Positions 917-59,160 of a DNA stretch of 64,000 bases are shown here, piece after piece; position 1 is the stretch's first letter; each line of letters starts with the position of its first letter. The stretch is from a virus, in IMG/VR virus record IMGVR_UViG_3300027719_000003, positions 1 to 64,000 of that record; one strand, given 5' to 3'. Below the pieces are notes generated by a model, which was given only the letters and a program-made list of their open reading frames with translations, was not told the DNA's origin and ran no database searches. Made by a program: the position numbers and the translations under genes.

Positions 917-1303
917 CTACCTCACATCTATACTCGGCACGATCACCGATGGCTTAAAGACCACCCTATAATGCGAAGTAGATACGGCACTAGCCTCAAG
1001 TGCCTCAGAAAAGTACGTCACGTTATCCGACAGGCCAAGGTAGTGCTTCAGGTACTCCCCACTATCCGTTTTTACCGTGACGACAAGATCACCGTCGCTA
1101 TCAACGATAATAGCAAGCCTACCCTCTATGGTGAGAATATACTCACCGTTGATGCCATTGTAGAACACAACACGGCGGTACACATTGAAATTCTGTTCCT
1201 CTCTCTCAAGATTAGCTCTAGCCACAGTTGCATCGTTGACGCAACCAGTGATGGATACTGCCACCATAACAGCCGCCAGAATCACAAAAATAACCTTCTT
1301 CAT
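917..1303 (-). CDS. phage lipoprotein
   Basis: Signal peptide with lipobox (ITG-C); C-terminal KHYLGLSDNVTYF motif typical of a common phage lipoprotein family. Confidence 0.75.
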   Translation of the reverse strand: MKKVIFVILAAVMVAVSITGCVNDATVARANLEREEQNFNVYRRVVFYNGINGEYILTIEGRLAIIVDSDGDLVVTVKTDSGEYLKHYLGLSDNVTYFSEALEASAVSTSHYRVVFKPSVIVPSIDVR

Positions 1304-1322
1304 CTTGTCCTCCTTATGTTTG

Positions 1323-1351
1323 TTTAGTCAGGTTGAAGCAGTTGTTATACG
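1323..1351 (-). mobile_element. truncated attC-like recombination site (R'' and L'' half)
   Basis: CGTATAAC-AACTG-CTTCAACC-TGACTAAA; 25 bp identical to 52204-52228; the inverse core is complementary to GTTATACG at 2171-2178. Confidence 0.75.
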
Positions 1352-2119
1352 TCTTTCTATTATCTTACAATATTCTTCTGATATTTCAGAACCGATCCAG
1401 TTACGCTTATTGAGCATTGCCATTTTAGCTGTGGTTCCTGAGCCCATGAAGGGGTCGTAAACCAAGTCTCCTTCATTGCTCCATGATATGATATGATCGT
1501 TAGCTAATTGTTCTGGAAATATAGCGGGGTGTTGAAAAGCGATTTTGTCTTGTGTAGAATGTCCTGCCCCGGCATTTATTCTCCAGATATTACCTTTTAT
1601 CTTATCTACACCAACAGGTTTCCTTTTCTTTTCTGATCGAGCCGCCCTGTTTACTTCATCTGTTTTAGAGAAATAGCTGTTTTGTCGTGCTGTTTCTTTT
1701 TCTGGGTACAAGCAAGGCACACGGATAGGATTAAATGTTTTTGGTGCTCCTTTAGAGAGCACAAACATATATTCAAAATCCTGCTCATATCTGTTATGGT
1801 TTTTAGGTAGGCAGTTTTTATGATATATCATAGTGTCATGCAGATTAAAACCACATTCCTTAAAAAATAATGCTTGTCTAAACGAAGTACCCGTTTCGCT
1901 TCTTTTAATCGTAGCATCACCAACAACCCAAACCACAACCCCGCCTTGCTTTGTCACTCTATATAGCTCTTTAGCTACTGCCTCAAAATCAAAACTATAG
2001 CCATTGTAGGTTCTCAGATTGTCATAAGGAGGGCTTGTCACAGTTAGGTCAATAAAGTTGTCTGGCATCCTTGCCATAGTGTCAAGGCAGTTTTCATTGT
2101 AGCATTTATTTATTTCCAA
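1328..2119 (-). CDS. DNA methyltransferase (N4-C/N6-A, beta class), borne on a cassette
   Basis: TSPPY catalytic motif, HPAIFP, DPFMGSGTT SAM-binding motif. Confidence 0.92.
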   Translation of the reverse strand: MEINKCYNENCLDTMARMPDNFIDLTVTSPPYDNLRTYNGYSFDFEAVAKELYRVTKQGGVVVWVVGDATIKRSETGTSFRQALFFKECGFNLHDTMIYHKNCLPKNHNRYEQDFEYMFVLSKGAPKTFNPIRVPCLYPEKETARQNSYFSKTDEVNRAARSEKKRKPVGVDKIKGNIWRINAGAGHSTQDKIAFQHPAIFPEQLANDHIISWSNEGDLVYDPFMGSGTTAKMAMLNKRNWIGSEISEEYCKIIERRITTAST

Positions 2120-2182
2120 TTCTTTCTCCTTTGCGGATTGTAGGCATAACTTGTTATGCCTTTTGCCGTCCGTATAACTATG

Positions 2183-2221
2183 ATTATACCTATCGGTATA
2201 ACTACATCCAAAAATCCCTAT
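2183..2221 (-). promoter_or_regulatory. 39-bp repeated promoter/attI-like element, copy 1
   Basis: ATAGGGATTTTTGGATGTAGTTATACCGATAGGTATAAT identical to 52593-52631; TTGGAT-17-TATAAT with palindrome TTATACC-GATA-GGTATAA. Confidence 0.8.
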
Positions 2222-2313
2222 ATACGAGCAGTTGGGTTCGAACCAACGTCCACATGGTGCATTACCTAATGCTACGGTAGCGAACGGAGGACTCGAACCC
2301 CAATCTCCATGTG
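2222..2313 (-). ncRNA. tRNA-like (circularly permuted, YrlA-like) structured RNA
   Basis: Two T-arms (GGGG-TTCGAGT-CCTC; GTTGG-TTCGAAC-CCAAC), a D-arm (TAGCATTAGGTAATGC) and a 7-bp closing stem CACATGG/CCATGTG; no canonical acceptor stem or anticodon loop. Confidence 0.5.
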
Positions 2314-2348
2314 TGTCCTAGTCCTCGTAGACGATGCTCGCATGAACT

Positions 2349-3388: not shown

Positions 3389-3417
3389 AGTGTACTACAA
3401 CTTCAGGGAAAAGTCAA
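3389..3417 (-). promoter_or_regulatory. promoter TTGACT-17-TACACT
   Basis: Consensus match. Confidence 0.65.
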
Positions 3418-4724
3418 GCATAATCGTCTGGCCTCTGCTCAAACAATCTCTCTAACTGATCCCCTCGCTGGTCAGCCCTATTGTACAATGCTTCATCAAA
3501 CACGATCTTCACCCCTATCGACTTCTTCACCGACAATGCGAACTCATCCCAATACGGCGACCCTAGCACAAGGTCGGCAGGATATGGTGTCCTATTCTTT
3601 CTCGCCGCCATTCTCCCAAGGAATTCCGCAAGCCCCAGCATGGCATTCCTACCTATGATAGTGCCATACCGTTTATCCTGCTCAACCAAATCTTTCCTAT
3701 GTTCCAGATACCAGTTGTGGAGTTTCCATAATGCGGCCACTACCGGCTCACTAAAATCAAACCGTTGGTACATTCGCTTTATCATCTTCAGTGCATCTTG
3801 GAAAATCTGGTCAGCTACCATCTCATCCTTATCGCTCTTCTCGATCTTGGCAACCGGCTTGAAGGGAACCTTCTTTCCGGTACGCATCTCGGCTATCGCG
3901 TCGAGCAACGGACTCTTCCCTGACTTGAAGTTACGGAAGAAATTCGGTAGGGACGTGACATACGCTGGTATACGCTTACACGCTTCGGCTATCTCCTCTG
4001 CTGTCACGGGGCCTATCGTCGTATAGTCATAGCTCGGATTCTCTGGCTTGTACTTGGCTACGAAGGAACCATCGAGTAGGGCACCATACTGATTGTAGAC
4101 TGTAGTTATACCTTTATACGTCTTGCCATTACCATCCTGTATCTTCGGTTTAAGGTGTGATACTTCCTTAACATGATCTATAAACGAAATGAACCAATCA
4201 GGTAGTGGCTTGGATTTGGATTCTTCGGGGAATAAATTATCACCTGAAGGAGTGGGCTGGGGCACTACTGCACCTGTAGCCTTATACTGCAACCACTCCT
4301 TGCACACGGTCTCTGTATCAATGTCTGCCTTCGTTTGATAGAACAGAAAATGACGGACTTGCATGGGTATGTGAAAGTACACACGATGTCCCGTCTCGGG
4401 ATCATGTTGGTTATACTTTTCTAACAGGCCACGCTCTACCAGTTTACGTATCACTGTGCTAAGGTTATGCGTACTCGACACTGGTACCATTTTATAGTAT
4501 CGCAAAAAGGTTGAGTAACACATCCACGCATAGTCTTTACCATCTATAATGAGGATGTTAGTCTTAGTACCATCCAGCAACCACTTGATCCATCCTAACA
4601 ACGCGGCCTCAGTGTAGGATAGATTATATTCTGCGGCGACGGGGCCATAGATACCCCCACCACAGGGGTATCGAGCTGTCTCTCTCCATGAAGCACATAG
4701 CTCCTGTAACTCATCTGTAGCCAT
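3414..4724 (-). CDS. putative replication initiator / winged-helix DNA-binding protein
   Basis: N-terminal pattern AALLGWIKW...DGKDYAWMCY...VIRKLVERGLL resembles phage replication-initiator wHTH domains. Confidence 0.5.
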   Translation of the reverse strand: MATDELQELCASWRETARYPCGGGIYGPVAAEYNLSYTEAALLGWIKWLLDGTKTNILIIDGKDYAWMCYSTFLRYYKMVPVSSTHNLSTVIRKLVERGLLEKYNQHDPETGHRVYFHIPMQVRHFLFYQTKADIDTETVCKEWLQYKATGAVVPQPTPSGDNLFPEESKSKPLPDWFISFIDHVKEVSHLKPKIQDGNGKTYKGITTVYNQYGALLDGSFVAKYKPENPSYDYTTIGPVTAEEIAEACKRIPAYVTSLPNFFRNFKSGKSPLLDAIAEMRTGKKVPFKPVAKIEKSDKDEMVADQIFQDALKMIKRMYQRFDFSEPVVAALWKLHNWYLEHRKDLVEQDKRYGTIIGRNAMLGLAEFLGRMAARKNRTPYPADLVLGSPYWDEFALSVKKSIGVKIVFDEALYNRADQRGDQLERLFEQRPDDYA

Positions 4725-6438: not shown

Positions 6439-6467
6439 TTGACTTTTTGTATGAGTGGTAGTACACT
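6439..6467 (+). promoter_or_regulatory. promoter TTGACT-17-TACACT
   Basis: Consensus match; the TTG start used by the ORF track is the -35 box. Confidence 0.7.
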
Positions 6468-6498
6468 CTGTTTAAGTTTTTGGAAGGAGGGTACAATC

Positions 6499-7251
6499 AT
6501 CTGTGACTTTATTTCTTGGATAGAGAAAGACGGAAAGCTCTACTGGTCTAGGGATGACGAAGTAGAGGCCGAATATGGTGAGATAACCAATCAACATTGT
6601 GGGCATGGTACCATACGGGAACTGCACAAGTTGAAGGGTGGTATTGAGTATGAGTCTGCCCTCAAGATTCCGCGAGAGATAGCGGCCTCAGTAAATCGTG
6701 GCGAGATGAAGAAACTTGCCAAGGCTGGTGGTTGGCACGGGGCACACTACACTGTTGGTGGTGCGAATAATACCACCTATTGGATTAGGTTCAAAAAAGA
6801 ATTGAAGAAGTATAAGGGAGTAACCTATATTTTGGATAACCACGGCCCCATTGATCCTGAGTGGAGGATATTTGACACGAGGGAACAGGCTAGGGAACAG
6901 GCTAGGGATCAGGCTAGGGATCAGGCTTGGGAACAGGCTTGGGAACAGGCTAGGGAACAGGCTAGGGAACAGGCTAGGGAACAGGCTTGGGAACAGGCTA
7001 GGGATCAGGCTAGGGATCAGGCTAGGGATCAGGCTAGGGATCAGGCTAGGGGTCAGGCGTGGTATCAGGCTAGGGATCAGGCTAGGGATCAGGCGTGGGA
7101 TCAGGCATATGTAGTGTCTGCCGTACTTCTTGAAGGCTACGAGACTTCAGAATGGTACGCCTATTGTAAGAAGCGTCTGGATATATGGGAAGCAGGATAT
7201 GGTGTACTATGCGATATCAACGGAGTCTTCTATGTGTATAAGAGCCTATAG
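6499..7251 (+). CDS. hypothetical protein with (R/W)xQA tetrapeptide repeats; apparent ATC start
   Basis: Long open frame; GGAGGG RBS 7 nt before ATC-TGT-GAC. Confidence 0.7.
   Translation: MCDFISWIEKDGKLYWSRDDEVEAEYGEITNQHCGHGTIRELHKLKGGIEYESALKIPREIAASVNRGEMKKLAKAGGWHGAHYTVGGANNTTYWIRFKKELKKYKGVTYILDNHGPIDPEWRIFDTREQAREQARDQARDQAWEQAWEQAREQAREQAREQAWEQARDQARDQARDQARDQARGQAWYQARDQARDQAWDQAYVVSAVLLEGYETSEWYAYCKKRLDIWEAGYGVLCDINGVFYVYKSL
6880..7107 (+). repeat. 19 x 12-bp coding tandem repeat
   Basis: Mostly (A/T)GG GA(A/T) CAG GCT units. Confidence 0.95.
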
Positions 7252-50192: not shown

Positions 50193-50808
50193 CTCCTACA
50201 GATGAATAGAATTTCATACGGTCTTCTAACTCCATACCTCTATATTCTTCCTCCATCCTATTCCAGTAACAGCATGTACGCTTACCTTCAGGGCATCCAC
50301 CACGATAAACGCAGGAGGGTACCATGCCATAATGCATTGCCCAAGCGAATTCAGCGGGGTCATCCTTAATCGTGTCCCCGAATAGCTCTCGGAATGCAAC
50401 CTTCACATTCATAGCCCAAGTTCTCGTCCACTTAGAGGCAAGGTGGCAAAGCCTTTGATGTGACATAGAAAGAAGAGCATCAGCAGGCCACGTACTTACA
50501 TAGATGCGGGGAGCAGAGGAGCTAGATGGCCTCGGCTCTCCTGTCCAATCAGGGCGCTTCGATTGCACGTAATGACGGGGATGCCCTTTCGTATGACGTA
50601 CAAGATGTGACACGACATCAGAGCGGCAGTTATCATCCGTTATGCGTATCCTCGCTTCGGCAAGGACAGAATGTTCAGCTATGACGGCCTCCATAGCGAA
50701 ACGCTCCATGTCCTTGGGTGACTGTAGGCTCAACTTGCCCTTAGTCGCCAAAGCGGCATAACGGATATCAGCCAGTGGTGAGGCGTTTAGAATCTCTAGT
50801 TTTAGCAT
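50149..50808 (-). CDS. ThyX/Thy1-like flavin-dependent thymidylate synthase (divergent)
   Basis: AEHSVL, HLVRH...VQSKR, QRLC, VPSCVYRGGCPE. Confidence 0.7.
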   Translation of the reverse strand: MLKLEILNASPLADIRYAALATKGKLSLQSPKDMERFAMEAVIAEHSVLAEARIRITDDNCRSDVVSHLVRHTKGHPRHYVQSKRPDWTGEPRPSSSSAPRIYVSTWPADALLSMSHQRLCHLASKWTRTWAMNVKVAFRELFGDTIKDDPAEFAWAMHYGMVPSCVYRGGCPEGKRTCCYWNRMEEEYRGMELEDRMKFYSSVGGASESIQQIPTDDV

Positions 50809-50817
50809 TATTCCTCC

Positions 50818-50997
50818 TTACTTAATGCACACCTTGGGCTTATAGAATATAGCCAACCCCGCAATGAATAGTCCAACCTGTATACAGAAGTTACGGAGCA
50901 GGGTCTCTGCTGTAGACGGAAGTAATGGGAGCATTATCCCAAGGGTAAACGTCGCACCCAGAGAAAAAACCAGCGATCGCCAACGATAATCGTTCAT
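50818..50997 (-). CDS. small membrane protein
   Basis: Two hydrophobic segments. Confidence 0.5.
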   Translation of the reverse strand: MNDYRWRSLVFSLGATFTLGIMLPLLPSTAETLLRNFCIQVGLFIAGLAIFYKPKVCIK

Positions 50998-51007
50998 AAA
51001 ATCATCC

Positions 51008-51283
51008 TTATCTTTTTTCAAACAAATGGAACACAAGAGTACCTGCTCTCATCTGAAACGTCCCTACGAATTCAGAAGCATCACAGACACAGGGGTGCCC
51101 AGTTCCATGAATGATAAAAGTTCGGTTAGTGGTGTCTGCTTCCGTGTCAACCAGTGCCCACATACATGGTATGCCGTCCTGCATCTGAACAGACAATACT
51201 TCCGCACCTTCTGGCATAGCGATTATCTGTTCATCCGTTATGGCAAGCGGGAACTTCCATATACTCTTCGTGATACTCTCCAT
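51008..51283 (-). CDS. conserved phage protein
   Basis: IWKFPL...MPEGAEVLSVQ...WALVD...GTGH...GTFQ...VFHLFE. Confidence 0.8.
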   Translation of the reverse strand: MESITKSIWKFPLAITDEQIIAMPEGAEVLSVQMQDGIPCMWALVDTEADTTNRTFIIHGTGHPCVCDASEFVGTFQMRAGTLVFHLFEKR

Positions 51284-51293
51284 AAAATCCTCC

Positions 51294-51500
51294 TTACTTT
51301 CGCTTCACCATGAAACGTTCTCCATCGAACCCATCCTTTCCTTGCTTACATGCTTCCTCAATTTGTAGTTCATAAAATTCAGTGGATTCTTGAAGTCGTG
51401 CTACTTGTTCCCTCAACTGCTGTAGCTGTCGAGAATATGTAGCAAGAGAGGCCGTCATATTCCTAAGACATTCTCGATGCCATTTTATGGACATTTTCAT
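51294..51500 (-). CDS. hypothetical coiled-coil protein
   Basis: AAGGAG RBS; promoter TTGACT-17-TACACT at 51519-51547. Confidence 0.65.
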   Translation of the reverse strand: MKMSIKWHRECLRNMTASLATYSRQLQQLREQVARLQESTEFYELQIEEACKQGKDGFDGERFMVKRK

Positions 51501-51558
51501 ATGATGCTCCTTATCAAGAGTGTACTACATTTTTACATAGAAGTCAAGTTATTATGAA

Positions 51559-51580
51559 TCAGGTTAAATCTGTGTTAGCC
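51559..51580 (-). mobile_element. truncated attC-like site ending cassette 3
   Basis: GGCTAAC...TTTAACCTGA; inverse core complementary to cassette start GTTAGCC at 51857-51863. Confidence 0.6.
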
Positions 51581-51786
51581 ACCCCATTGGAACTGCGTTT
51601 CAATCCCAACTGTTCCGGGTCTAGGTAAAACACGGGGCCACGAAAACCGCAAGCGCACCACACGTTTACTATTTGTCGCCCGTTTTCGTCCGTGTATCCT
51701 TCCGGCCCATGAAGCTCATGCCCACAATCTTTTGGAAGATGCGAAAACGGGCACTCGTACTGCGAATAATCGAAAATGTTTTTCAA
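51559..51786 (-). CDS. cassette 3 ORF, Cys/His-containing hypothetical protein
   Basis: TTG start after GGAGG; stop inside attC half-site. Confidence 0.65.
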   Translation of the reverse strand: MKNIFDYSQYECPFSHLPKDCGHELHGPEGYTDENGRQIVNVWCACGFRGPVFYLDPEQLGLKRSSNGVANTDLT

Positions 51787-51856
51787 GTGTTCCTCCAATG
51801 GGGCTTGGGCAGTAATCGGTATAAGCGGCCCCAAGCGCTTATACCGTGGACGATCT

Positions 51857-51918
51857 GGCTAACATTTGCTTAACCTGCAAGGCCGTTAGGACTTGTCAGG
51901 TTCAAGCTGTTATTGGGT
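51857..51918 (-). mobile_element. attC-like site (62 bp)
   Basis: ACCCAAT-AACAG-CTTGAACC-TGACAAG...CTTGCA-GGTTAAG-CAAAT-GTTAGCC. Confidence 0.8.
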
Positions 51919-52112
51919 GCTATGGGCGCTTCCGGTATATGCATCCAATGGGTGTATCCCTTAATAAGCATACACTCACGACGAAAATCATCATCCCAAG
52001 GCCCAGTGAAAGCGCCATGATCTGCCAGACGTTTTTTATGATGATCGTCCCATACGTCGAAACGCGTATTAAGCGGTGGAAGTTCTTCTGTGACGCTAAT
52101 CCATCCAGACAT
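51870..52112 (-). CDS. cassette 2 ORF, DUF551-like phage protein
   Basis: WISVTEELP...THWMHIPEAP; ATG after GGAGG; reads into attC. Confidence 0.8.
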   Translation of the reverse strand: MSGWISVTEELPPLNTRFDVWDDHHKKRLADHGAFTGPWDDDFRRECMLIKGYTHWMHIPEAPIAPNNSLNLTSPNGLAG

Positions 52113-52181
52113 AATTCCTCCTGTAATCTCGCCCGTAGCTTGGCGCGTGTCCGCGTAACTTGTTACGCGGCTAAAGCGTCC

Positions 52182-52231
52182 ATCCAACATTTGCTTAACC
52201 TGCTTTAGTCAGGTTGAAGCAGTTGTTAGGA
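52182..52231 (-). mobile_element. attC-like site (50 bp, minimal)
   Basis: R'' TCCTAAC, 5-bp spacer, L'' CTTCAACC (extra C), TG-A-C stem (extra A), loop TAAA, L' GGTTAAG, 5-bp spacer, R' GTTGGAT. Confidence 0.85.
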
Positions 52232-52519
52232 ACTATTGTATTTGTCACACAACGCTTTGATCTTTTCTGCGACTTCACGGAATCCATTTTCCTTTCCGCC
52301 GTATTCGCGATCAATAATAACCTGAGCCATTTCCGGCGCAAGAGCAATCAAGCGCATGTTTATTTCGCGCTGTTCGTCGTCGCCGTATCCTGTATAATCG
52401 TCTCCGCATACGTCGAGCGAGTACGCCATTCCCGGAGCTTTATCTGCCTCAACAAACGGCGCTAGACCGTGCGAACTTTCACGAATCTTCCACGGCCCTT
52501 TAGTCCACGGTGTTTTCAT
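52226..52519 (-). CDS. cassette 1 ORF, phage hypothetical protein
   Basis: TKGPW...NMRLIALAPE motif; TAA stop within R'' of attC. Confidence 0.75.
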   Translation of the reverse strand: MKTPWTKGPWKIRESSHGLAPFVEADKAPGMAYSLDVCGDDYTGYGDDEQREINMRLIALAPEMAQVIIDREYGGKENGFREVAEKIKALCDKYNSS

Positions 52520-52592
52520 GCTCTTTCTTCCTTTCGCGGATTGTCCGCGTATTGGCGTAGCCGATATGCGGCTGTCCGTCGTCCTAACAAGT

Positions 52593-52631
52593 ATTATACC
52601 TATCGGTATAACTACATCCAAAAATCCCTAT
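52593..52631 (-). promoter_or_regulatory. 39-bp repeated promoter/attI-like element, copy 2
   Basis: Identical to 2183-2221; 4 bp upstream of GTTAGGA core; a standard phage promoter (TTGACT-17-TATACT, 52644-52672) lies just upstream. Confidence 0.8.
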
Positions 52632-52676
52632 GTTCTTGCCATAAGTATACCGCATCTCCCTGCAAAAGTCAAGCAC

Positions 52677-53270
52677 TTATGGCAGTTCCTCCACCGATTT
52701 CACCATAGGAATTCCCACCCCTATAGCCACGGCTTCCTCCACCAAAGCACCCTTAGACTTATCATATCCCGGCAGAAGCAACACCCAGTCTGCATCCATC
52801 ATGGCCCGAATATCTTCCCGCATATAATCCTGCCACGTCTTCCATTTAGAGACGATAGACAGATCAAATGGGCTTATTGCCGTGTACCCCTTAGCCTCTA
52901 CCGCCTTTACCGCTTCAGCGAACGCTTCACGATTGTAGTTCACTATCCCCGTAATAGGGCCGGATATATACACCCGCTTCCCATTCACATGGCCTTGGTG
53001 ATCGAACCAGCCTATATAGTATAAACAGCATATAGCGTGGGCAATGTGGGGAAGACCAGACTCCCTATCGATGACTTGGCCCATAGCCCGCTTCCATAGA
53101 TGCCGGAAGGCGGCGGCTATATAGCGTAGCTTGGCGTTGGGCACCTTCTTCCAATTATCGGGGGAATACTTCTTAGCCCCGAACGTGAGCACCTTGGCTA
53201 CGTCCTCGTGCGGCTCTGCCGGGATGAGATCGTAGCGTAACTTGTCCTGATCGTATTTTACACCCTGCAT
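52677..53270 (-). CDS. dATP/dGTP diphosphohydrolase (DUF5664-like) fused to DUF4406-like domain
   Basis: GVKYDQDKLRYDLIP...GAKKY..DNW...ESGLPHIAHA; VYISGPITG...SKGA..E. Confidence 0.85.
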   Translation of the reverse strand: MQGVKYDQDKLRYDLIPAEPHEDVAKVLTFGAKKYSPDNWKKVPNAKLRYIAAAFRHLWKRAMGQVIDRESGLPHIAHAICCLYYIGWFDHQGHVNGKRVYISGPITGIVNYNREAFAEAVKAVEAKGYTAISPFDLSIVSKWKTWQDYMREDIRAMMDADWVLLLPGYDKSKGALVEEAVAIGVGIPMVKSVEELP

Positions 53271-53279
53271 GTTGCCTCC

Positions 53280-54224
53280 TTATTTATAGAACGGATACCA
53301 CGTAACGGTGAACTGAAGTATTTCCCCGTCACGAACTTTACCACTAATGATCCAGAAACCAGTATGGGCGGCGAGACGTTTATAACGCATAAAGCCAGAT
53401 TGTTTCTGGATACACCCCGTGCTGACGGCATGGATGTTGCGGTCAAACACGTAGAACGCCTTATGCGTATGGGATGCCAGTAACACCTTTGGCTTCTCTC
53501 CACCAGTAAAGGCTTCTATGATCTTCTGAACGCGGTAGCTATAGGCGTAGCTAGAAGAATCTTCACCATGCCACAACATAAATGTTGCGCCATTAACGGT
53601 GACAATGCCTTCGTGTATTCCAAGATAGGTAGCATGGGGCAATCGCAATGCCAAATCTTCCCCTATATCCATTCCTACACCAGACTTCGTGTTTCCCCAC
53701 AGATCGTGATTTCCGATAATAAAATATAACGGAAGTTCCCATTGCTTCAAAAGTTCTACAGCCTTGTTTCTCTGTGCCGCATACCCTATTTCGGATAGCT
53801 CATATATCTGCCCCGGCCTTGTGCTCATCCCTTCCAGCACATCGCCCCCATGGAGCATAGCAGTACACCCCTGCTTCTTGCCCTCCTCCATAGCAGACAG
53901 CAGTAGTTTATCTTCAAAATAAATCGAACCTATATGCGTATCAGACAGTACAAGGAATTTGAAGTCTTCCCCCTCAAAAGTAATAATACCTTTTTCTCTC
54001 GGGCGCTTATCCATGTTCATAGTCAACAGGGTCTCTAGCTCACTATCGCTAAACTTATCCCTCACCCTACCAACAATGTCAGCGGTATCTCCGAACTTCT
54101 TCCTGTATTCCCGCTTGTACCTATTAAACGTTTCTTCAGGAATACCGTAGGTCTCAAGCGTCTTAGTGGTGCCGTTCGTAGCCGCTGACTCCACTATCTC
54201 TTTAATACGTGCTTCGCTCGTCAT
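53280..54224 (-). CDS. metallophosphoesterase
   Basis: SDTHIG, GDVLEG, GNHD, HG, SHTH. Confidence 0.88.
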   Translation of the reverse strand: MTSEARIKEIVESAATNGTTKTLETYGIPEETFNRYKREYRKKFGDTADIVGRVRDKFSDSELETLLTMNMDKRPREKGIITFEGEDFKFLVLSDTHIGSIYFEDKLLLSAMEEGKKQGCTAMLHGGDVLEGMSTRPGQIYELSEIGYAAQRNKAVELLKQWELPLYFIIGNHDLWGNTKSGVGMDIGEDLALRLPHATYLGIHEGIVTVNGATFMLWHGEDSSSYAYSYRVQKIIEAFTGGEKPKVLLASHTHKAFYVFDRNIHAVSTGCIQKQSGFMRYKRLAAHTGFWIISGKVRDGEILQFTVTWYPFYK

Positions 54225-55140: not shown

Positions 55141-55315
55141 TGGGCTGTGCCTCCTTAAATATACTTAGTCCTGTCTTTGTCTTTTTAACATAAAAGGTAG
55201 AATCATCTCGAAAAGTGTAGACACAATCTTTGTGTTCATTTTTTAACATGTCATCTATCATGGCGCTTATCTTTTCTGAATCATAGGACTCCATATTGTT
55301 AATAATTACTCGCAT
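55115..55315 (-). CDS. hypothetical protein
   Basis: AAGGAG RBS; fills gap between pol and dut. Confidence 0.55.
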   Translation of the reverse strand: MRVIINNMESYDSEKISAMIDDMLKNEHKDCVYTFRDDSTFYVKKTKTGLSIFKEAQPSETTLQKT

Positions 55316-58300
55316 CTGCATCTCCTTTCAGCGTTCCTGCTTCACTCATCTCTGCCCATGATCCATCGATCTCGGACTGCTCCTTTTCGATAGTCAGTGG
55401 TACGTTAATCCAGTCCCAATGCTCCCGTACCTTCTGCGTCCCATAATCCCAATACCAGTAATCAATCAAGTCCTGTTCACTTGGATGGGCGTCGAAAATA
55501 CAACTATCGTGAATCTCTCCAATGATCCTAGAGCGCTCCAGCCGCATGACCTTTTTATTGACTTGATTCATCGTCCATTGTAAAATATGGTACGAACTGC
55601 CTTGCACTGGTGTATTGAATGTATTATTTCTACTCATAGGCCCATAACACTTGAACCCCGTCTTCAGCTCGACATACCCGTGCTTCTGGTAAAATTTCCA
55701 TTGTGACTCACGCCATTCATTATGTACAGGAAAGCGGTCTTCCCACAGGATACGTTCTGCTTCCTGTATATGTCTCTCGAAATCATCGAAATTCTTTACA
55801 CCCTTGTCAAAAAGATGCTGGCGTAAATTATGTACCTCGGCGGTTTCCCACAAGTCCTTAGCAACCTGTTTGTAGAAAGAGCCATAGAACTCGGCAAAAA
55901 CAAATTGGCCCTTCACATCTCCACGTAATGCTTTTGTAACCTCCTCTGGTTTAAGCATGAAGCAATCGGCGGCAGAGTCTCGATGCATGTCGGTAGTAGG
56001 ATCGAGCAGATACTTAATAAGTGTCGGGTCTTTTGAGAACATGCAATTCCCGGAAACTTCCAAAGATTTGTAGTCCATTTCTACAATCCTATTACCTTTA
56101 GAGGGAGTTATGAACTCTCGCAGTAACTTTTTAGCGTTTTTGTCCCGCTTAGGTTGGTTTTGAACGTTTGGAGCGTTGGCAGAATTATGCACGCAAATCT
56201 CATTGGCGATAAAGTTATGCGTATCCTCTACTTCCAGATCATACACATCCACTGCATCAGGAAGGACTTCTACAGCATAAACTGTTCTTACGCCGTCTGC
56301 CAAATACTCATAAGGCAAAATGACTCCTCCTAGCACTAGTTGGAATTTCTTCTCCTTCAGAAGCCTCCCTGCCTCAATATAATCCCCATCATTTTTACGA
56401 ATCAAATGCTCTGGAGTTACATCGAGATGAATTTCATAAATGCCGTCCTCGTTATACCCTCCAATATAATGTAGCCGCACTACATTACGATGCCCAGTCT
56501 TTCCTGCCCACAGGACACGTTTATGTGTCATGGTGTACTTATCCGAATACGTTATAGCGTATGCGTTCTCTATATCCTCTACATTCTCTATACACACTTC
56601 CCTAACATTATTTCCATTAGAGTCGCATATCAGTACCTTACTCCCCCTAGCCACGCAAGACCTAAAAGTATCTACCCTATTGATATTAAAGTACGGATGA
56701 ATCTTCCCACCAATCACCTCAGTCTTGTACTGTGCTATATATGTATTCCGCATCTTGAACAGCTTACGATACGCCAATATATCCTTTATGATCGGCACAT
56801 CCAACTTCGCCAACGTCTCCTCATCCACGCTAGGCTTCTTGGCGTCGGTGTATTTTGTCGGTGTAAGCCCCATAATCTCATAGAGAAGTTTTGATAACTG
56901 TGGAGATGACTGATAATTAAACGTCCCATCTGTCCACTGTCCCAATAAGGGGCTTCCCATGATCTTCTGGTGCTGTACAAGCATCTGCGTGTCCAGTTCT
57001 TCCTGTACCTCCTGTAGCTTGTCAAGAGTGACATTGAACCCATTGGCCTGAGCAATCGTTAATGTCTGTGCCGACTCCATAAAGAATTCAAAACCTTTAC
57101 GCTGAAAGGCAGACATACGGGCAGACTGGCGATCAGCCAGCTTGAAGGTGTAGAGAGAATCCAAGGCACCATAGGTAAGTAAAGGTTCCATGGGGGCACG
57201 ATGTATCTGGTTGATAGCGTTGGCACCATGTAGTTTCTCCTCTGCGGCAGTTGCCTTGAGATATTCATCCACCTCATCATCATACCCAGAGTGGCCGAAT
57301 TCAGTATAGACCATGAACTTGAGGCCCGTAGGCTTTTGGTTACTCAGGCAGTGTTGAGCAAGCATCGTATCCCAATCCCAGTTCGCTACCCAATAGCCGC
57401 ATTGTACATACGTCCATAGCATCTCGAATGAAAGGTTCTGTGCTATTTTCTTGACATCTGAAAGCATAAGAGCCTTCCATGCGGCTTTGAACTTATCACT
57501 CGTAAAGAACGGGAATGAATAGGAAGCATAGCCATCGCTAATCGATACTGACCATATCTTCTGGCCTTCCCGGTGCGGCTTCCTTCCCGTGGTCTCATAG
57601 TCGAACGCCATACGCTTCCAGCTCATAGCCTGTTCAATCCACTCGATAGCCTTTGACTCATCCTGCGTGATGGCAGTCTGGTCTCTATAATCTATTAAAG
57701 ATACTGGCTGTAGATTAAAGGCTTTATAGAGATGATCTTTCCACATACCATAGAAGGCTATGTCTCGTTCATACCGTGGCTTTGATTCATTGCCATCATC
57801 ATACGACTTCCGCTCCATCATAGACGCTACAGACCAGATCGGCGTGAGCCATGTCTTATATTCCTGATCGGGAATATGTTCTCCTACAAAGGCAGAAAAC
57901 GCTAGTCCGGTAATACGTCCAGAAAGGCGTGGCTCAATAAGCGAATCAAAGCCGGTTTCACCAAGAAGAATGATAGACACCGGCTTCAGCTTATTGATAA
58001 GGCTAAGAAGCCTAGAACGACAAGCGCTGATCTCCGTGAAGTTCGGGGCACGATTCTTTGATGGGGCACAATTGATAGCCGTAGTGTAGTAGCAATCCTT
58101 CGCCATGTCAATACCAAGCTGACGAAGGGTATCATGGATGAAACAATACTCTAGGCCAGAACCAAGCTCCCCAGCGTCGTCTTCATCATAGGAAGGCCGA
58201 GTGCCAACGATAAGTACTTGCTTCTGGCCTTCCCCGGTGAAACGGAGCTTAGGGCTATGGCACCCCTCGTTCAGCCTACAATCTTCACACGACAAGGTAG

Positions 58301-58382
58301 AGCGTTTGACTGCTACCTTGGAGGACACCCGCTCATCGCCCCGAATGGTTGGGGCGTCCTCAAGTAAGTTAAAAAACCCCAA
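55299..58382 (-). CDS. family A DNA polymerase with N-terminal UDG-like domain, 3'-5' exonuclease and intein
   Basis: CEDC..C/NCAP...EISAC UDG family-4-like domain; FDYETTG exonuclease; PNVQN, MDYKSLE, EIHDS polymerase motifs. Confidence 0.93.
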   Translation of the reverse strand: MGFFNLLEDAPTIRGDERVSSKVAVKRSTLSCEDCRLNEGCHSPKLRFTGEGQKQVLIVGTRPSYDEDDAGELGSGLEYCFIHDTLRQLGIDMAKDCYYTTAINCAPSKNRAPNFTEISACRSRLLSLINKLKPVSIILLGETGFDSLIEPRLSGRITGLAFSAFVGEHIPDQEYKTWLTPIWSVASMMERKSYDDGNESKPRYERDIAFYGMWKDHLYKAFNLQPVSLIDYRDQTAITQDESKAIEWIEQAMSWKRMAFDYETTGRKPHREGQKIWSVSISDGYASYSFPFFTSDKFKAAWKALMLSDVKKIAQNLSFEMLWTYVQCGYWVANWDWDTMLAQHCLSNQKPTGLKFMVYTEFGHSGYDDEVDEYLKATAAEEKLHGANAINQIHRAPMEPLLTYGALDSLYTFKLADRQSARMSAFQRKGFEFFMESAQTLTIAQANGFNVTLDKLQEVQEELDTQMLVQHQKIMGSPLLGQWTDGTFNYQSSPQLSKLLYEIMGLTPTKYTDAKKPSVDEETLAKLDVPIIKDILAYRKLFKMRNTYIAQYKTEVIGGKIHPYFNINRVDTFRSCVARGSKVLICDSNGNNVREVCIENVEDIENAYAITYSDKYTMTHKRVLWAGKTGHRNVVRLHYIGGYNEDGIYEIHLDVTPEHLIRKNDGDYIEAGRLLKEKKFQLVLGGVILPYEYLADGVRTVYAVEVLPDAVDVYDLEVEDTHNFIANEICVHNSANAPNVQNQPKRDKNAKKLLREFITPSKGNRIVEMDYKSLEVSGNCMFSKDPTLIKYLLDPTTDMHRDSAADCFMLKPEEVTKALRGDVKGQFVFAEFYGSFYKQVAKDLWETAEVHNLRQHLFDKGVKNFDDFERHIQEAERILWEDRFPVHNEWRESQWKFYQKHGYVELKTGFKCYGPMSRNNTFNTPVQGSSYHILQWTMNQVNKKVMRLERSRIIGEIHDSCIFDAHPSEQDLIDYWYWDYGTQKVREHWDWINVPLTIEKEQSEIDGSWAEMSEAGTLKGDADASNY
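56184..56657 (-). mobile_element. mini-intein (158 aa, no endonuclease evident)
   Basis: CVARGSKV...VTPEH...VYDLEVEDTHNFIANEICVHN followed by Ser. Confidence 0.92.
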
Positions 58383-58392
58383 TCAGTCCTCC

Positions 58393-59160
58393 TTATGCTT
58401 CTTCTATCCGTTTCTTAGCGATCTCAAAGTAAGTATCGTCTTTTTCTATACCGATGAATCTTCTGTATAGGTTCTTGCAAGCTACTCCTGTACTGCCCGA
58501 ACCCATAGCATTGTCTAACACAATCTCGCCTTCAAGCGTGTAGGTCTTAATCAGGTATTCAAGAAGGGCTACTGGCTTTTGAGTTGGATGCACTTTTCCA
58601 CGTGCATCCCTAGCAAAGTATATAAGTTGTTTGGCTAATAGCTTATCTGGTTCGTAATCTCTACCATGATAATTCTGGGTTTCATCCATCACTGTCTCTG
58701 ACCAAGAATCCCCCATCACATCTTTCACATTTTTAGTAATCTTACTGGGATTTTTAGAAAGATGCCTACGGGATACCCCTGCTGGATTTATGGTTTTCTG
58801 TGAATTATACGTGGGCTGATGCGCATAAAACACACTTATAATTTCTATTATTTTTATGGGCATTTTATTACCAAAAAGAAAGTTTGCCCCTTTGTCTTTC
58901 TCCCAGTACCAGTCATAGCGGTAATCCTTTATATTACTCAGCCTCAAAGAACTTGAAAACGGCTCACTACCAAACAAAACTATAGCGCCATCGTTCTTAA
59001 TGATTCTCTTATATTGCTCCCATAGTGGCTCAAACGGGATAACCGCGTCCCACTTACATTTTGTAGTGCCATAAGGAAGATCACATAGAATCATATCGAC
59101 GCTTTTATCTGCTATGCTTTGCATTTCAACAAGACAGTCACCATGAATTAGTGTCGCCAT
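58393..59160 (-). CDS. DNA methyltransferase (N6-A/N4-C, beta class)
   Basis: CDLPYG, HPTQKP, DNAMGSGST. Confidence 0.92.
   Translation of the reverse strand: MATLIHGDCLVEMQSIADKSVDMILCDLPYGTTKCKWDAVIPFEPLWEQYKRIIKNDGAIVLFGSEPFSSSLRLSNIKDYRYDWYWEKDKGANFLFGNKMPIKIIEIISVFYAHQPTYNSQKTINPAGVSRRHLSKNPSKITKNVKDVMGDSWSETVMDETQNYHGRDYEPDKLLAKQLIYFARDARGKVHPTQKPVALLEYLIKTYTLEGEIVLDNAMGSGSTGVACKNLYRRFIGIEKDDTYFEIAKKRIEEA

Follow-up and report, generated by a model that had tools for sequence, protein, structure and literature searches.

The window analysed here is the first 64 kb (64,000 nucleotides) of the IMG/VR virus record IMGVR_UViG_3300027719_000003, a 73,585-bp phage genome that has direct terminal repeats and is rated complete. 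On its minus strand, at 51559-52631, lies a compact series of small genes, array A, in which a promoter-bearing start site is followed by three cassettes that end in attC-type hairpins and encode, in order, a TxGPW protein, a DUF551 protein and a 74-aa orphan. On the 5' side stands a predicted backbone sigma-70-like promoter (52644..52672, TTGACT-17-TATACT, 10/12 in a consensus scan), which is conserved in two related phages, L003 and L004. The array-start platform (52589..52631) consists of a 39-nt element (52631..52593), which recurs at a second locus, and then ACTT; within it, the inverted repeat GTTATAC...GTATAAT contains a TATAAT -10 box, and the platform is a candidate attI-like site and cassette promoter in one. 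Cassette 1 (52182..52588) opens with the R' box GTTAGGA (52588..52582) and a 69-nt leader with hairpins and a ribosome-binding site (RBS), followed by a 97-aa open reading frame (ORF) of the TxGPW, PF27050-like type (52519..52226) and an attC site (52231..52182) whose R'' box, TCCTAAC, is the exact complement of its own R'. Cassette 2 (51857..52188) has the R' box GTTGGAT (52188..52182), a leader hairpin (52170..52151) and AGGAGG ahead of the start of an 80-aa DUF551 ORF (52112..51870), the last 13 codons and stop of which are encoded by the attC site (51918..51857); here R'' has decayed to ACCCAAT, agreeing with the expected ATCCAAC at 5/7 positions. An 18-nt exact direct repeat (51861-51878 and 52186-52203) recurs within the array. 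Cassette 3 (51559..51863) begins with R' GTTAGCC (51863..51857) and a leader with an 11-bp hairpin (51846..51817), carries a Cys-rich 74-aa ORF with no family match (51783..51559), and closes with a cut-off terminal attC (51581..51559) that comprises R'' GGCTAAC and the 5' arm only and abuts the backbone. A second predicted backbone promoter, also conserved in L003 and L004, lies directly 3' of the array (51519..51547, TTGACT-17-TACACT). The consensus scan of 51400-52800 placed a further promoter-like site inside the terminal half-site (51578..51551, minus strand), but cassettes 2 and 3 showed none in their leaders; the platform promoter probably drives all cassettes of the array as one transcript.

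The same plan is seen at locus B (1324..2221, minus strand), which is a one-cassette array. A copy of the platform (2221..2179) is followed by R' GTTATAC (2178..2172), a leader with a hairpin (2144-2161), a 263-aa N6_N4 DNA methylase ORF (2119..1328) and a cut-off attC (1350..1324) whose R'' GTATAAC is the complement of its own R'. The two loci have in common a 37-nt exact repeat (2185-2221 and 52595-52631) and a 24-nt repeat, each occurring twice against 0 expected in shuffles. Locus B lies inside a larger insertion/deletion difference, since the relative G001 lacks the entire 711-2220 block and has 244 nt with a small ORF instead (L264 6297-6541); this 1.5-kb block comprises a 76-aa ORF, a Phage_VG64-like lipoprotein (917-1303), the methylase cassette and the platform. 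Directly upstream of the locus B platform there is also a tRNA-like sequence (2223-2345, minus strand), of which 2223-2281 scores 27.7 bits with the Rfam tRNA model against a gathering score of 29 and receives no ARAGORN call, and which a second T-arm-like stretch adjoins. The tRNA-like block is 97.7% conserved in G001, and the junction at which platform and methylase are missing there comes directly after it.

To characterize the hairpins, we used one exact 21-base hairpin pattern, found in 70 stretches on 67 IMG/VR contigs, and located 137 sites in 73 viral sources. Over the entire 73.6-kb phage, a covariance model built from 82 distinct related hairpins detected full sites only at 52231..52182 (64.5 bits, E 2e-13) and at 51918..51857 (55.9 bits, E 3e-11), which are 325 nt apart; two truncated sites exist besides, and a half-site at 1350..1288 was also found by the model (14.7 bits, E 0.43). 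Folded as single-stranded DNA, the two full hairpins have z values of -3.4 to -4.2, and 0/200 shuffles fold as well. Throughout the alignment of 82 sites, AAC and GTT are invariant (R' = GTTRRRY, R'' = RYYYAAC), at least 90% of sites retain a single bulged base, the 4-nt spacers between the R and L boxes are mostly unpaired, and 8/10 L-box pairs covary. Classical attC sites are described as having a second extrahelical base, which was not evident in this alignment. Because the original site list had pairing as a criterion, compensation was recounted with sites anchored on the R boxes alone (..AAC and GTT..): 10/10 pairs were formed in 127 of the 141 sites, and 40 of the 54 sites with arm substitutions were fully compensated. 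The idea that the inner box is oriented unlike that of classical attC sites was dropped, as integrase-linked bacterial arrays show the same architecture.

Of 62 adjacent pairs of sites, 45 showed a perfect match, at the 4 variable positions, between the R' of one site and the R'' of the next; shuffles averaged 5.7 such pairs and never exceeded 15 (0/10,000 reached 45), and only 8/130 single hairpins had a perfect match between their own two boxes. Gene cassettes with recombination at G|TT classically bear such a match as their signature. Complementarity to the own R' is perfect in 3/4 cassettes of the window (TxGPW, 74-aa ORF and methylase), the DUF551 cassette being the 5/7 case. Cassettes in the form of elements like miniature inverted-repeat transposable elements (MITEs), with terminal inverted repeats of ~21 nt, would also explain this match and the right-hand half-sites; this model was rejected as the main reading, as the loops between units are palindromic stem extensions, the left repeat is missing from array starts, and the sites of Tetrasphaera phage TJE1, which belong to the same family (see below), are IntI1 substrates. 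Judged on sequence, the window hairpins are genuine attC sites of a known structural class, because of the cassette signature, the compensatory pairing, the TJE1 sites and the integrase-linked bacterial counterparts. It is highly improbable that they are regulatory only, serving as terminators or in RNA processing or stability with no part in gene movement. The hairpins do occupy the gaps between co-oriented genes, share sequence with stop codons and have structured leaders after them, and in the accessible text of Qi et al. 2023 (PMC9892861) attC sites are cited as weak terminators. Against such a role, a search of 51400-52800 for terminator-like sites (stem plus T-run) gave none, Rfam, which is without an attC family, gave 0 matches to the hairpins, and regulation would leave unexplained the R'/R'' match, the replacement of arrays between relatives and the presence of a 97% identical cassette in an unrelated phage.

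With at least two close attC sites and no integron integrase near, array A has the make-up of a cluster of attC sites lacking an integron integrase (CALIN). It is no complete integron (intI, attI and cassette promoter), as the genome has no tyrosine recombinase: a search with PF00589 gave 0 matches at E <= 1 in the complete 73.6-kb phage genome and matches in 14/14 control genomes as positive controls. Among 50 array-bearing viral records, PF00589 was matched in 3, and in 1/8 of those rated at least 90% complete; the three recombinases were rejected as integron integrases (best 57 bits against a cut-off of 265), which leaves integron integrases in 0/50. We consider it probable that the region is an integrase-less integron-type array in a complete virulent-type tailed phage, with phage cargo and with cassettes that are swapped between phages.

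This makes the window a new member of a published kind, as Qi et al. 2023 (PMC9892861), in the part of the paper available, described for virulent phages clusters of attC sites that hold methylase cargo and are without an integrase. There, 17 phage CALINs are counted in all, a CALIN of 3 attC sites and 4 ORFs is described in virulent phage TJE1 (HQ225832), IntI1 recombined 5/6 of the phage attC sites that were tested (two of TJE1 and three others) into attI1 at G|TTRRRY, and phage attC clusters are presented as a route of transfer between phages and bacteria, having perhaps entered phages through illegitimate or off-target recombination. The TJE1 sites (244-293, 1016-1075 and 1462-1519) score 46.9-69.1 bits with the model made from the relatives of the window sites, which places them in the same attC family. 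TJE1 and the window are alike in methylase cargo, in co-oriented cassettes, in having no integrase (none is listed in the TJE1 annotation) and in two GTTRRRY-like boxes that stand in inverted orientation immediately ahead of the first cassette, and the TJE1 methylase cassette has the same leader type as locus B. In contrast, the two phages differ in G+C content (46% in the window phage, 58% in TJE1) and have only a glycosyltransferase (48%) and weak matches in common, and the window, unlike TJE1, carries a pair of arrays, both headed by copies of one promoter-bearing platform. We found nothing in print on a phage-wide cassette pool, or on the start platform, leaders and truncated ends, in a literature search that, for subscription journals, was thin and reached sources only in part.

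Counterparts of the window sites are also found in bacteria. The 21-base pattern occurs in more than 120 stretches of bacterial genomes, mostly Treponema arrays with almost the same boxes; 4/5 motif-bearing bacterial genomes have an integron integrase over the curated cut-off, compared with 0/14 control genomes, and two covariance-model matches (52.8 and 56.2 bits) adjoin one such integrase. Arrays in the chromosomal integrons of Treponema, known from the available portion of Wu et al. 2013 (PMC3607928), resemble the window family in their near-identical R and L boxes, in the bulged base and in G|TTRRRY starts followed by a short hairpin. They and other integrase-bearing bacterial arrays differ in the presence of the integrase, in their spacers (ACCC/GAAT, versus AACT/AAAT in phages) and in loops of at least 20-23 nt; the cassette spacing in Treponema is 0.9-2.5 kb, as against a median of 370 nt in phages, and the cargo is unrelated to that of the window. 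As in class 1 mobile integrons, the window has one promoter at the start, co-oriented and mostly single-ORF cassettes, crossover at G|TTRRRY and an R'' complementary to the start of its own cassette. Unlike these, it has no intI, a long conserved leader with its own RBS for each cassette, a truncated last attC, very uniform attC sites (as in sedentary arrays) and a virulent-type phage as carrier.

Across the family, a cassette begins at G|TTRRRY, continues with a structured leader of ~70 nt and its own RBS, and ends in the attC hairpin. The leaders (median 68 nt over 89 distinct ones) run from GTTRRRY through GGA/TGA and a hairpin, often ..ATAAC-AA-GTTAT.., to the RBS; the hairpin stem is often an R''-like box opposite an R'-like box, and Treponema cassettes likewise open with a short hairpin. 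The leader hairpin might act in RNA stability, in translation or as a secondary site of recombination. The cassette ORF stops within attC in 78/105 cases; all three frames are closed there, one through a TAA in R'', one through a TGA in the 5' arm and one through a TAA in the 3' arm. Of 36 distinct array starts, 21 have an inverted repeat whose end is 3-6 nt 5' of the first GTT, compared with 391/3360 random GTT sites. Most of these repeats have the form GTTAKRC-N-RYCTAAT-ATAT, which can also be read as a -10 box, and the start repeat may therefore represent an attI-like site fused to the cassette promoter; at the 5 loci examined, no phage-type start platform was found adjoining a bacterial integrase. 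At the other end, 18 sites across the family, including those of both window arrays, keep only R'' and the 5' arm and join the backbone within 2-15 nt of the loop start, often straight into the RBS of the next gene. Deletion from the hairpin tip is one possibility for these truncated ends, because the phage has an SbcCD-like nuclease.

The cargo of the cassettes is phage accessory genes. The 80-aa protein matches DUF551 (PF04448) at 35.9 bits (cut-off 22; E 1.4e-8), its residues 3-63 aligning with profile positions 1-67 of 68, and phrog_924 at 2.7e-9; its conserved C-terminus is attC-encoded and as a query would bias matches towards cassettes, and no close-relative loci of this gene were found in IMG/VR. 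The 97-aa protein (MKTPWTKGPW...NMRLIALAPEM) matches phrog_1273 at E 1.1e-6 and nothing in the Pfam copy used. Its database homologues are 14 unnamed metagenomic proteins, 7 of them with a precomputed PF27050 (Phage_P22_Y8K6) assignment, and in a protein atlas, used as a lead only, its nearest clusters are mostly viral and named Phage_P22_Y8K6 (score 0.89). The locus B methylase matches N6_N4_Mtase (PF01555) at 161.2 bits against a cut-off of 26.7 (E 4.8e-47) and phrog_67 at 1.5e-59. A second N6_N4 DNA methylase (E 5.6e-30; 58393-59160, minus strand) is a backbone gene without attC or leader, so that this family occurs in the phage both as a cassette and as an ordinary gene. These results bear out an earlier note on this DNA, which had recognised by eye a DUF551-like protein and a TxGPW...RLIAxAP protein as typical small phage accessory families, and a phage-type methylase at the second locus.

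The same note had held the cargo to be of phage type and not that of chromosomal integrons, and we agree, since the closest homologues do not lie in host arrays. The TxGPW, DUF551 and 74-aa proteins had 0 tblastn matches in 80 bacterial attC loci (542 kb, mostly Treponema arrays), and their closest relatives are in viral arrays or are ordinary phage genes; the window methylase reached only 20-39% identity in these loci. Viral cassette proteins matched the bacterial attC loci in 13/105 cases, most strongly phage-type arrays in genome bins (L135, L139 and L145), and methylases also matched L204, a Treponema genome bin, at 25-31% identity. Phage-type attC arrays, with AACT/AAAT spacers and short loops, were seen on contigs binned into genomes of widely differing phyla (L135, L139, L145, L153, L160, L188, L195 and L202, in bins of Spirochaetales, Saccharibacteria, Gammaproteobacteria, Vulcanibacillus, Chloroflexota, Armatimonadota and Deinococcota), and L135 is identical to the IMG/VR locus L093 across two cassettes. 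These are probably phage contigs in bins, and the bins are therefore weak evidence for host identity.

Beyond the window, the 105 delimited cassette ORFs fall into 80 blastp clusters, and cassettes have a median length of 370 nt (range 208-2115). Family scans covered 106 ORFs (103 of the 105 plus three from the window, two TJE1 ORFs being excluded), with tallies that may overlap on the same proteins: phrog_67 methyltransferase was matched by 10, N6_N4_Mtase by 7, DUF551 by 4, Dam by 3 and Mom by 2, while MT-A70, D12 methylase, C5 methylase, RtcB, AAA_33 and DUF7352 were matched by one each. As DNA-modification enzymes dominate, the family-wide cargo suggests a swappable anti-restriction/accessory kit.

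The nature of the cargo also bears on whether the array could be a dead fragment of a bacterial chromosomal integron, acquired through illegitimate recombination and now immobile with its bacterial cargo. Such an origin would fit the mode of entry suggested in the accessible part of Qi et al. (PMC9892861), the close resemblance of the attC boxes to those of Treponema chromosomal arrays, and the signs of decay, namely one eroded R'' and truncated terminal sites. We nevertheless regard it as very unlikely. The cargo belongs to families of phages; of the four window cassette proteins, three are without matches in the bacterial loci and the fourth has only distant ones, and the phage cassettes are far shorter than the Treponema spacing. 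Moreover, a conserved start platform is present in many backbones, the family is spread over 42-46 backbone groups, and the array differs between phages whose flanking genes are nearly identical.

This last point is illustrated by L003 and L004, whose backbones are collinear with the window and whose copies of the 197-aa gene next to the array are 97-98% identical to that of the window. Between the shared flanks the array is wholly replaced, with 2 cassettes in L003 and 7 in L004, none of them shared in place with the window; the L004 array includes one DUF551 cassette, and its last cassette is a methylase 86% identical to the locus B enzyme. Similarity ends within the first R' box (at 52586 in L003 and 52584 in L004) and resumes at 51578, in the terminal half-site, in L003 and at 51551, some 30 nt beyond, in L004. 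A further contig, L252, holds the TxGPW cassette in an internal position, with 97.1% identity over 383 nt (52589..52207), while the remaining 4.9 kb has no blastn or tblastx match to the phage, except for a cassette leader and an attC arm; the leader and 3' frame of the window methylase there surround a different ORF. At four pairs of loci (L071/L101, L072/L080, L004/L085 and L063/L117), the same attC is followed by a different right-hand neighbour from GTT on. Taken together, these comparisons support the view that cassettes have been gained, lost and swapped between phages. In Logan contigs from 4 runs, breaks occur at the attC and leader repeats, and in the best-holding run the depth summed over these contigs at repeat bins was 10-20x that of neighbouring unique bins; this indicates that many other contigs in the samples carry the same repeats, excised circles and rare variants not being visible in assembled contigs of this kind. 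The earlier note had proposed that phage genes are converted into cassettes and exchanged. The exchange is upheld by the L003 and L004 arrays and the L252 cassette, whereas for conversion the proposal goes further than the data, which are consistent with it: two more distant TxGPW homologues (52% and 47%) are without attC, and identical leader/attC frames surround different ORFs.

Several observations weigh against an integron-type array with exchanged cassettes, or at least against its operation by an integrase. The assignment of the window sites to attC relies on the covariance model made here together with the published TJE1 calls, for which Qi et al. used the IntegronFinder and HattCI pipelines. 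The R'' of the DUF551 cassette is decayed, and the terminal attC sites are truncated, although classical IntI insertion should leave a whole attC. The last cassettes differ among the window, L003 and L004, though the terminal site is without R'. Only 3 cassette pairs of at least 90% identity were found across backbone groups in a strict count, which is unreliable for sharing between lineages, as the grouping (single-linkage blastn) is coarse and the window-L252 pair was missed. In that pair, identity between the TxGPW cassettes is lost within the 5' arm of attC and the loops differ, so that the junction would fit a homologous crossover and not one at G|TT. Finally, with no integron integrase in cis, the action of a host integrase in trans is purely what we infer, and shuffling driven by homology needs no integrase at all, because proteins of RecA/UvsX-like, gp32-like, RusA-like and SbcCD-like type and, more weakly, a UvsY-like one are encoded by the phage itself.

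What moves the cassettes could therefore be viewed in more than one way. During infection, an integron integrase that the host supplies in trans might recombine the single-stranded attC hairpins, which we give a little short of an even chance. Alternatively, recombination of the UvsX/gp32 type, provided by the phage and acting on the conserved attC-plus-leader repeats of ~110 nt, might move the cassettes, a route that we consider quite possible if on balance doubtful; both routes may operate. In its broader form, which we hold at a similarly tentative level, this alternative says that the hairpin-plus-leader repeats today mainly provide portable homology for phage recombination, the attC form being inherited and without current use by an integrase. 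A model for it exists in the promoter early stem-loop (PeSL) elements, in which a stem-loop is joined to a sigma-70 early promoter ahead of each variable ORF. As far as the accessible parts of Arbiol et al. 2010 (PMC2839356) and Comeau et al. 2014 (PMC4122927) describe them, these 'mobile regulatory cassettes' of T4-type phages resemble the window in having conserved stem-loop intergenic repeats around small variable accessory ORFs in hyperplastic regions, in being carried by lytic phages with their own recombination system, and in the gene shuffling between phages proposed for them. In the window, by contrast, a promoter-like site stands where the array begins, whereas cassettes 2 and 3 have leaders in which none was found, and the hairpins, unlike PeSL, are attC sites with a cassette-specific R'/R'' signature.

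The evidence on portable homology is divided. Besides the recombination genes of the phage, the L252 junction, the variable last cassettes and the lack of integron integrases from all 50 array-bearing records, it is favoured by the leaders: one type (GTTATAC...) precedes at least 3 unrelated ORF families, and L252 holds the methylase frame around another ORF. On the other hand, the R'/R'' match in 45/62 pairs would have no role in homologous exchange, though crossovers in the arms would preserve it passively, and the fixed-bulge hairpin is maintained by compensatory change. Relatives of the window sites are efficient IntI1 substrates in the data accessible from Qi et al. (PMC9892861), and many junctions lie exactly at GTT with the upstream attC kept (L071/L101, L072/L080 and L004/L085). 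The earlier note had envisaged a site-specific route, and this claim is not sustained here, given that no phage with an integron integrase was found among these records and that homologous recombination accounts better for some of the junctions.

An unlikely third agent would be an as yet unrecognised kind of recombinase, encoded by phages or satellites and acting on the uniform sites and the start platform, and what is left of the probability would go to a mixture or to something else. Such an enzyme could account for attC sites that are unusually uniform across unrelated backbones and for the inverted-repeat platform 3-6 nt before the first GTT, in phages that have no integron integrase in cis. 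In addition, the host of TJE1 is an actinobacterium, from a phylum in which integrons are not known to have been reported. Against it, no candidate was found, as 20 larger non-structural proteins of the phage gave replication, homologous-recombination, nucleotide and sugar enzymes only, and the window phage and TJE1 share almost no genes. A 436-aa orphan (3414-4724), weakly shared with TJE1, was considered as an array-linked recombinase and rejected, as it is present in only 2/50 array-bearing records.

For the integron-type array itself, the meaning may extend further. One ambitious reading, which we put forward tentatively and with less than even confidence, is that virulent phages of many unrelated lineages carry an integrase-less promoter/attI-like platform and draw on a shared pool of small cassettes, made from phage genes and moved by a host or unrecognised recombinase. 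The cassettes of this pool would have a standard leader, their own RBS and a uniform attC with stops in three frames, and would be rich in anti-restriction DNA-modification genes. If so, the integron principle would have a second home in phages, independent of the first, and the birth of cassettes could be watched there in a tractable setting. Two questions are addressed, the means by which small accessory genes are swapped among phages and the origin of integron cassettes, and the system offers a concrete test case for both, being common (67 IMG/VR contigs), with base-precise cassette borders and one cultured member (TJE1 on Tetrasphaera). Its cargo is clearly of phage type, with an emphasis on enzymes by which restriction would be defeated, namely DNA methylases and Mom-like proteins. 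Should a host integrase drive the exchange, lytic phages would be users of bacterial integron machinery in their own arms race; should the recombination system of the phage do so, attC-like repeats would be a general device for modular shuffling. In either case, metagenomic surveys of 'attC cassettes' may sample phage genes.

In the backbone, array A is surrounded by minus-strand genes of a replication/nucleotide module, among them a dATP/dGTP diphosphohydrolase-DUF4406 fusion, a metallophosphatase, a DUF7352 gene and a family-A DNA polymerase ORF of 1027 aa (55299-58382). Elsewhere the phage encodes a DnaB-like helicase, a primase, an SNF2 helicase, ribonucleotide reductase and sugar-nucleotide enzymes. 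A blastn search (distant mode) of 50800-53300 against 50,697 GenBank phage records returned one irrelevant 92-nt match only. Judged by eye, the polymerase ORF has an apparent insert with an intein-like C-terminal junction (...VHNS...). On the plus strand, a 270-aa ORF at 6439-7251 contains a long run of near-perfect AREQ/ARDQ/AWEQ tetrapeptide repeats.

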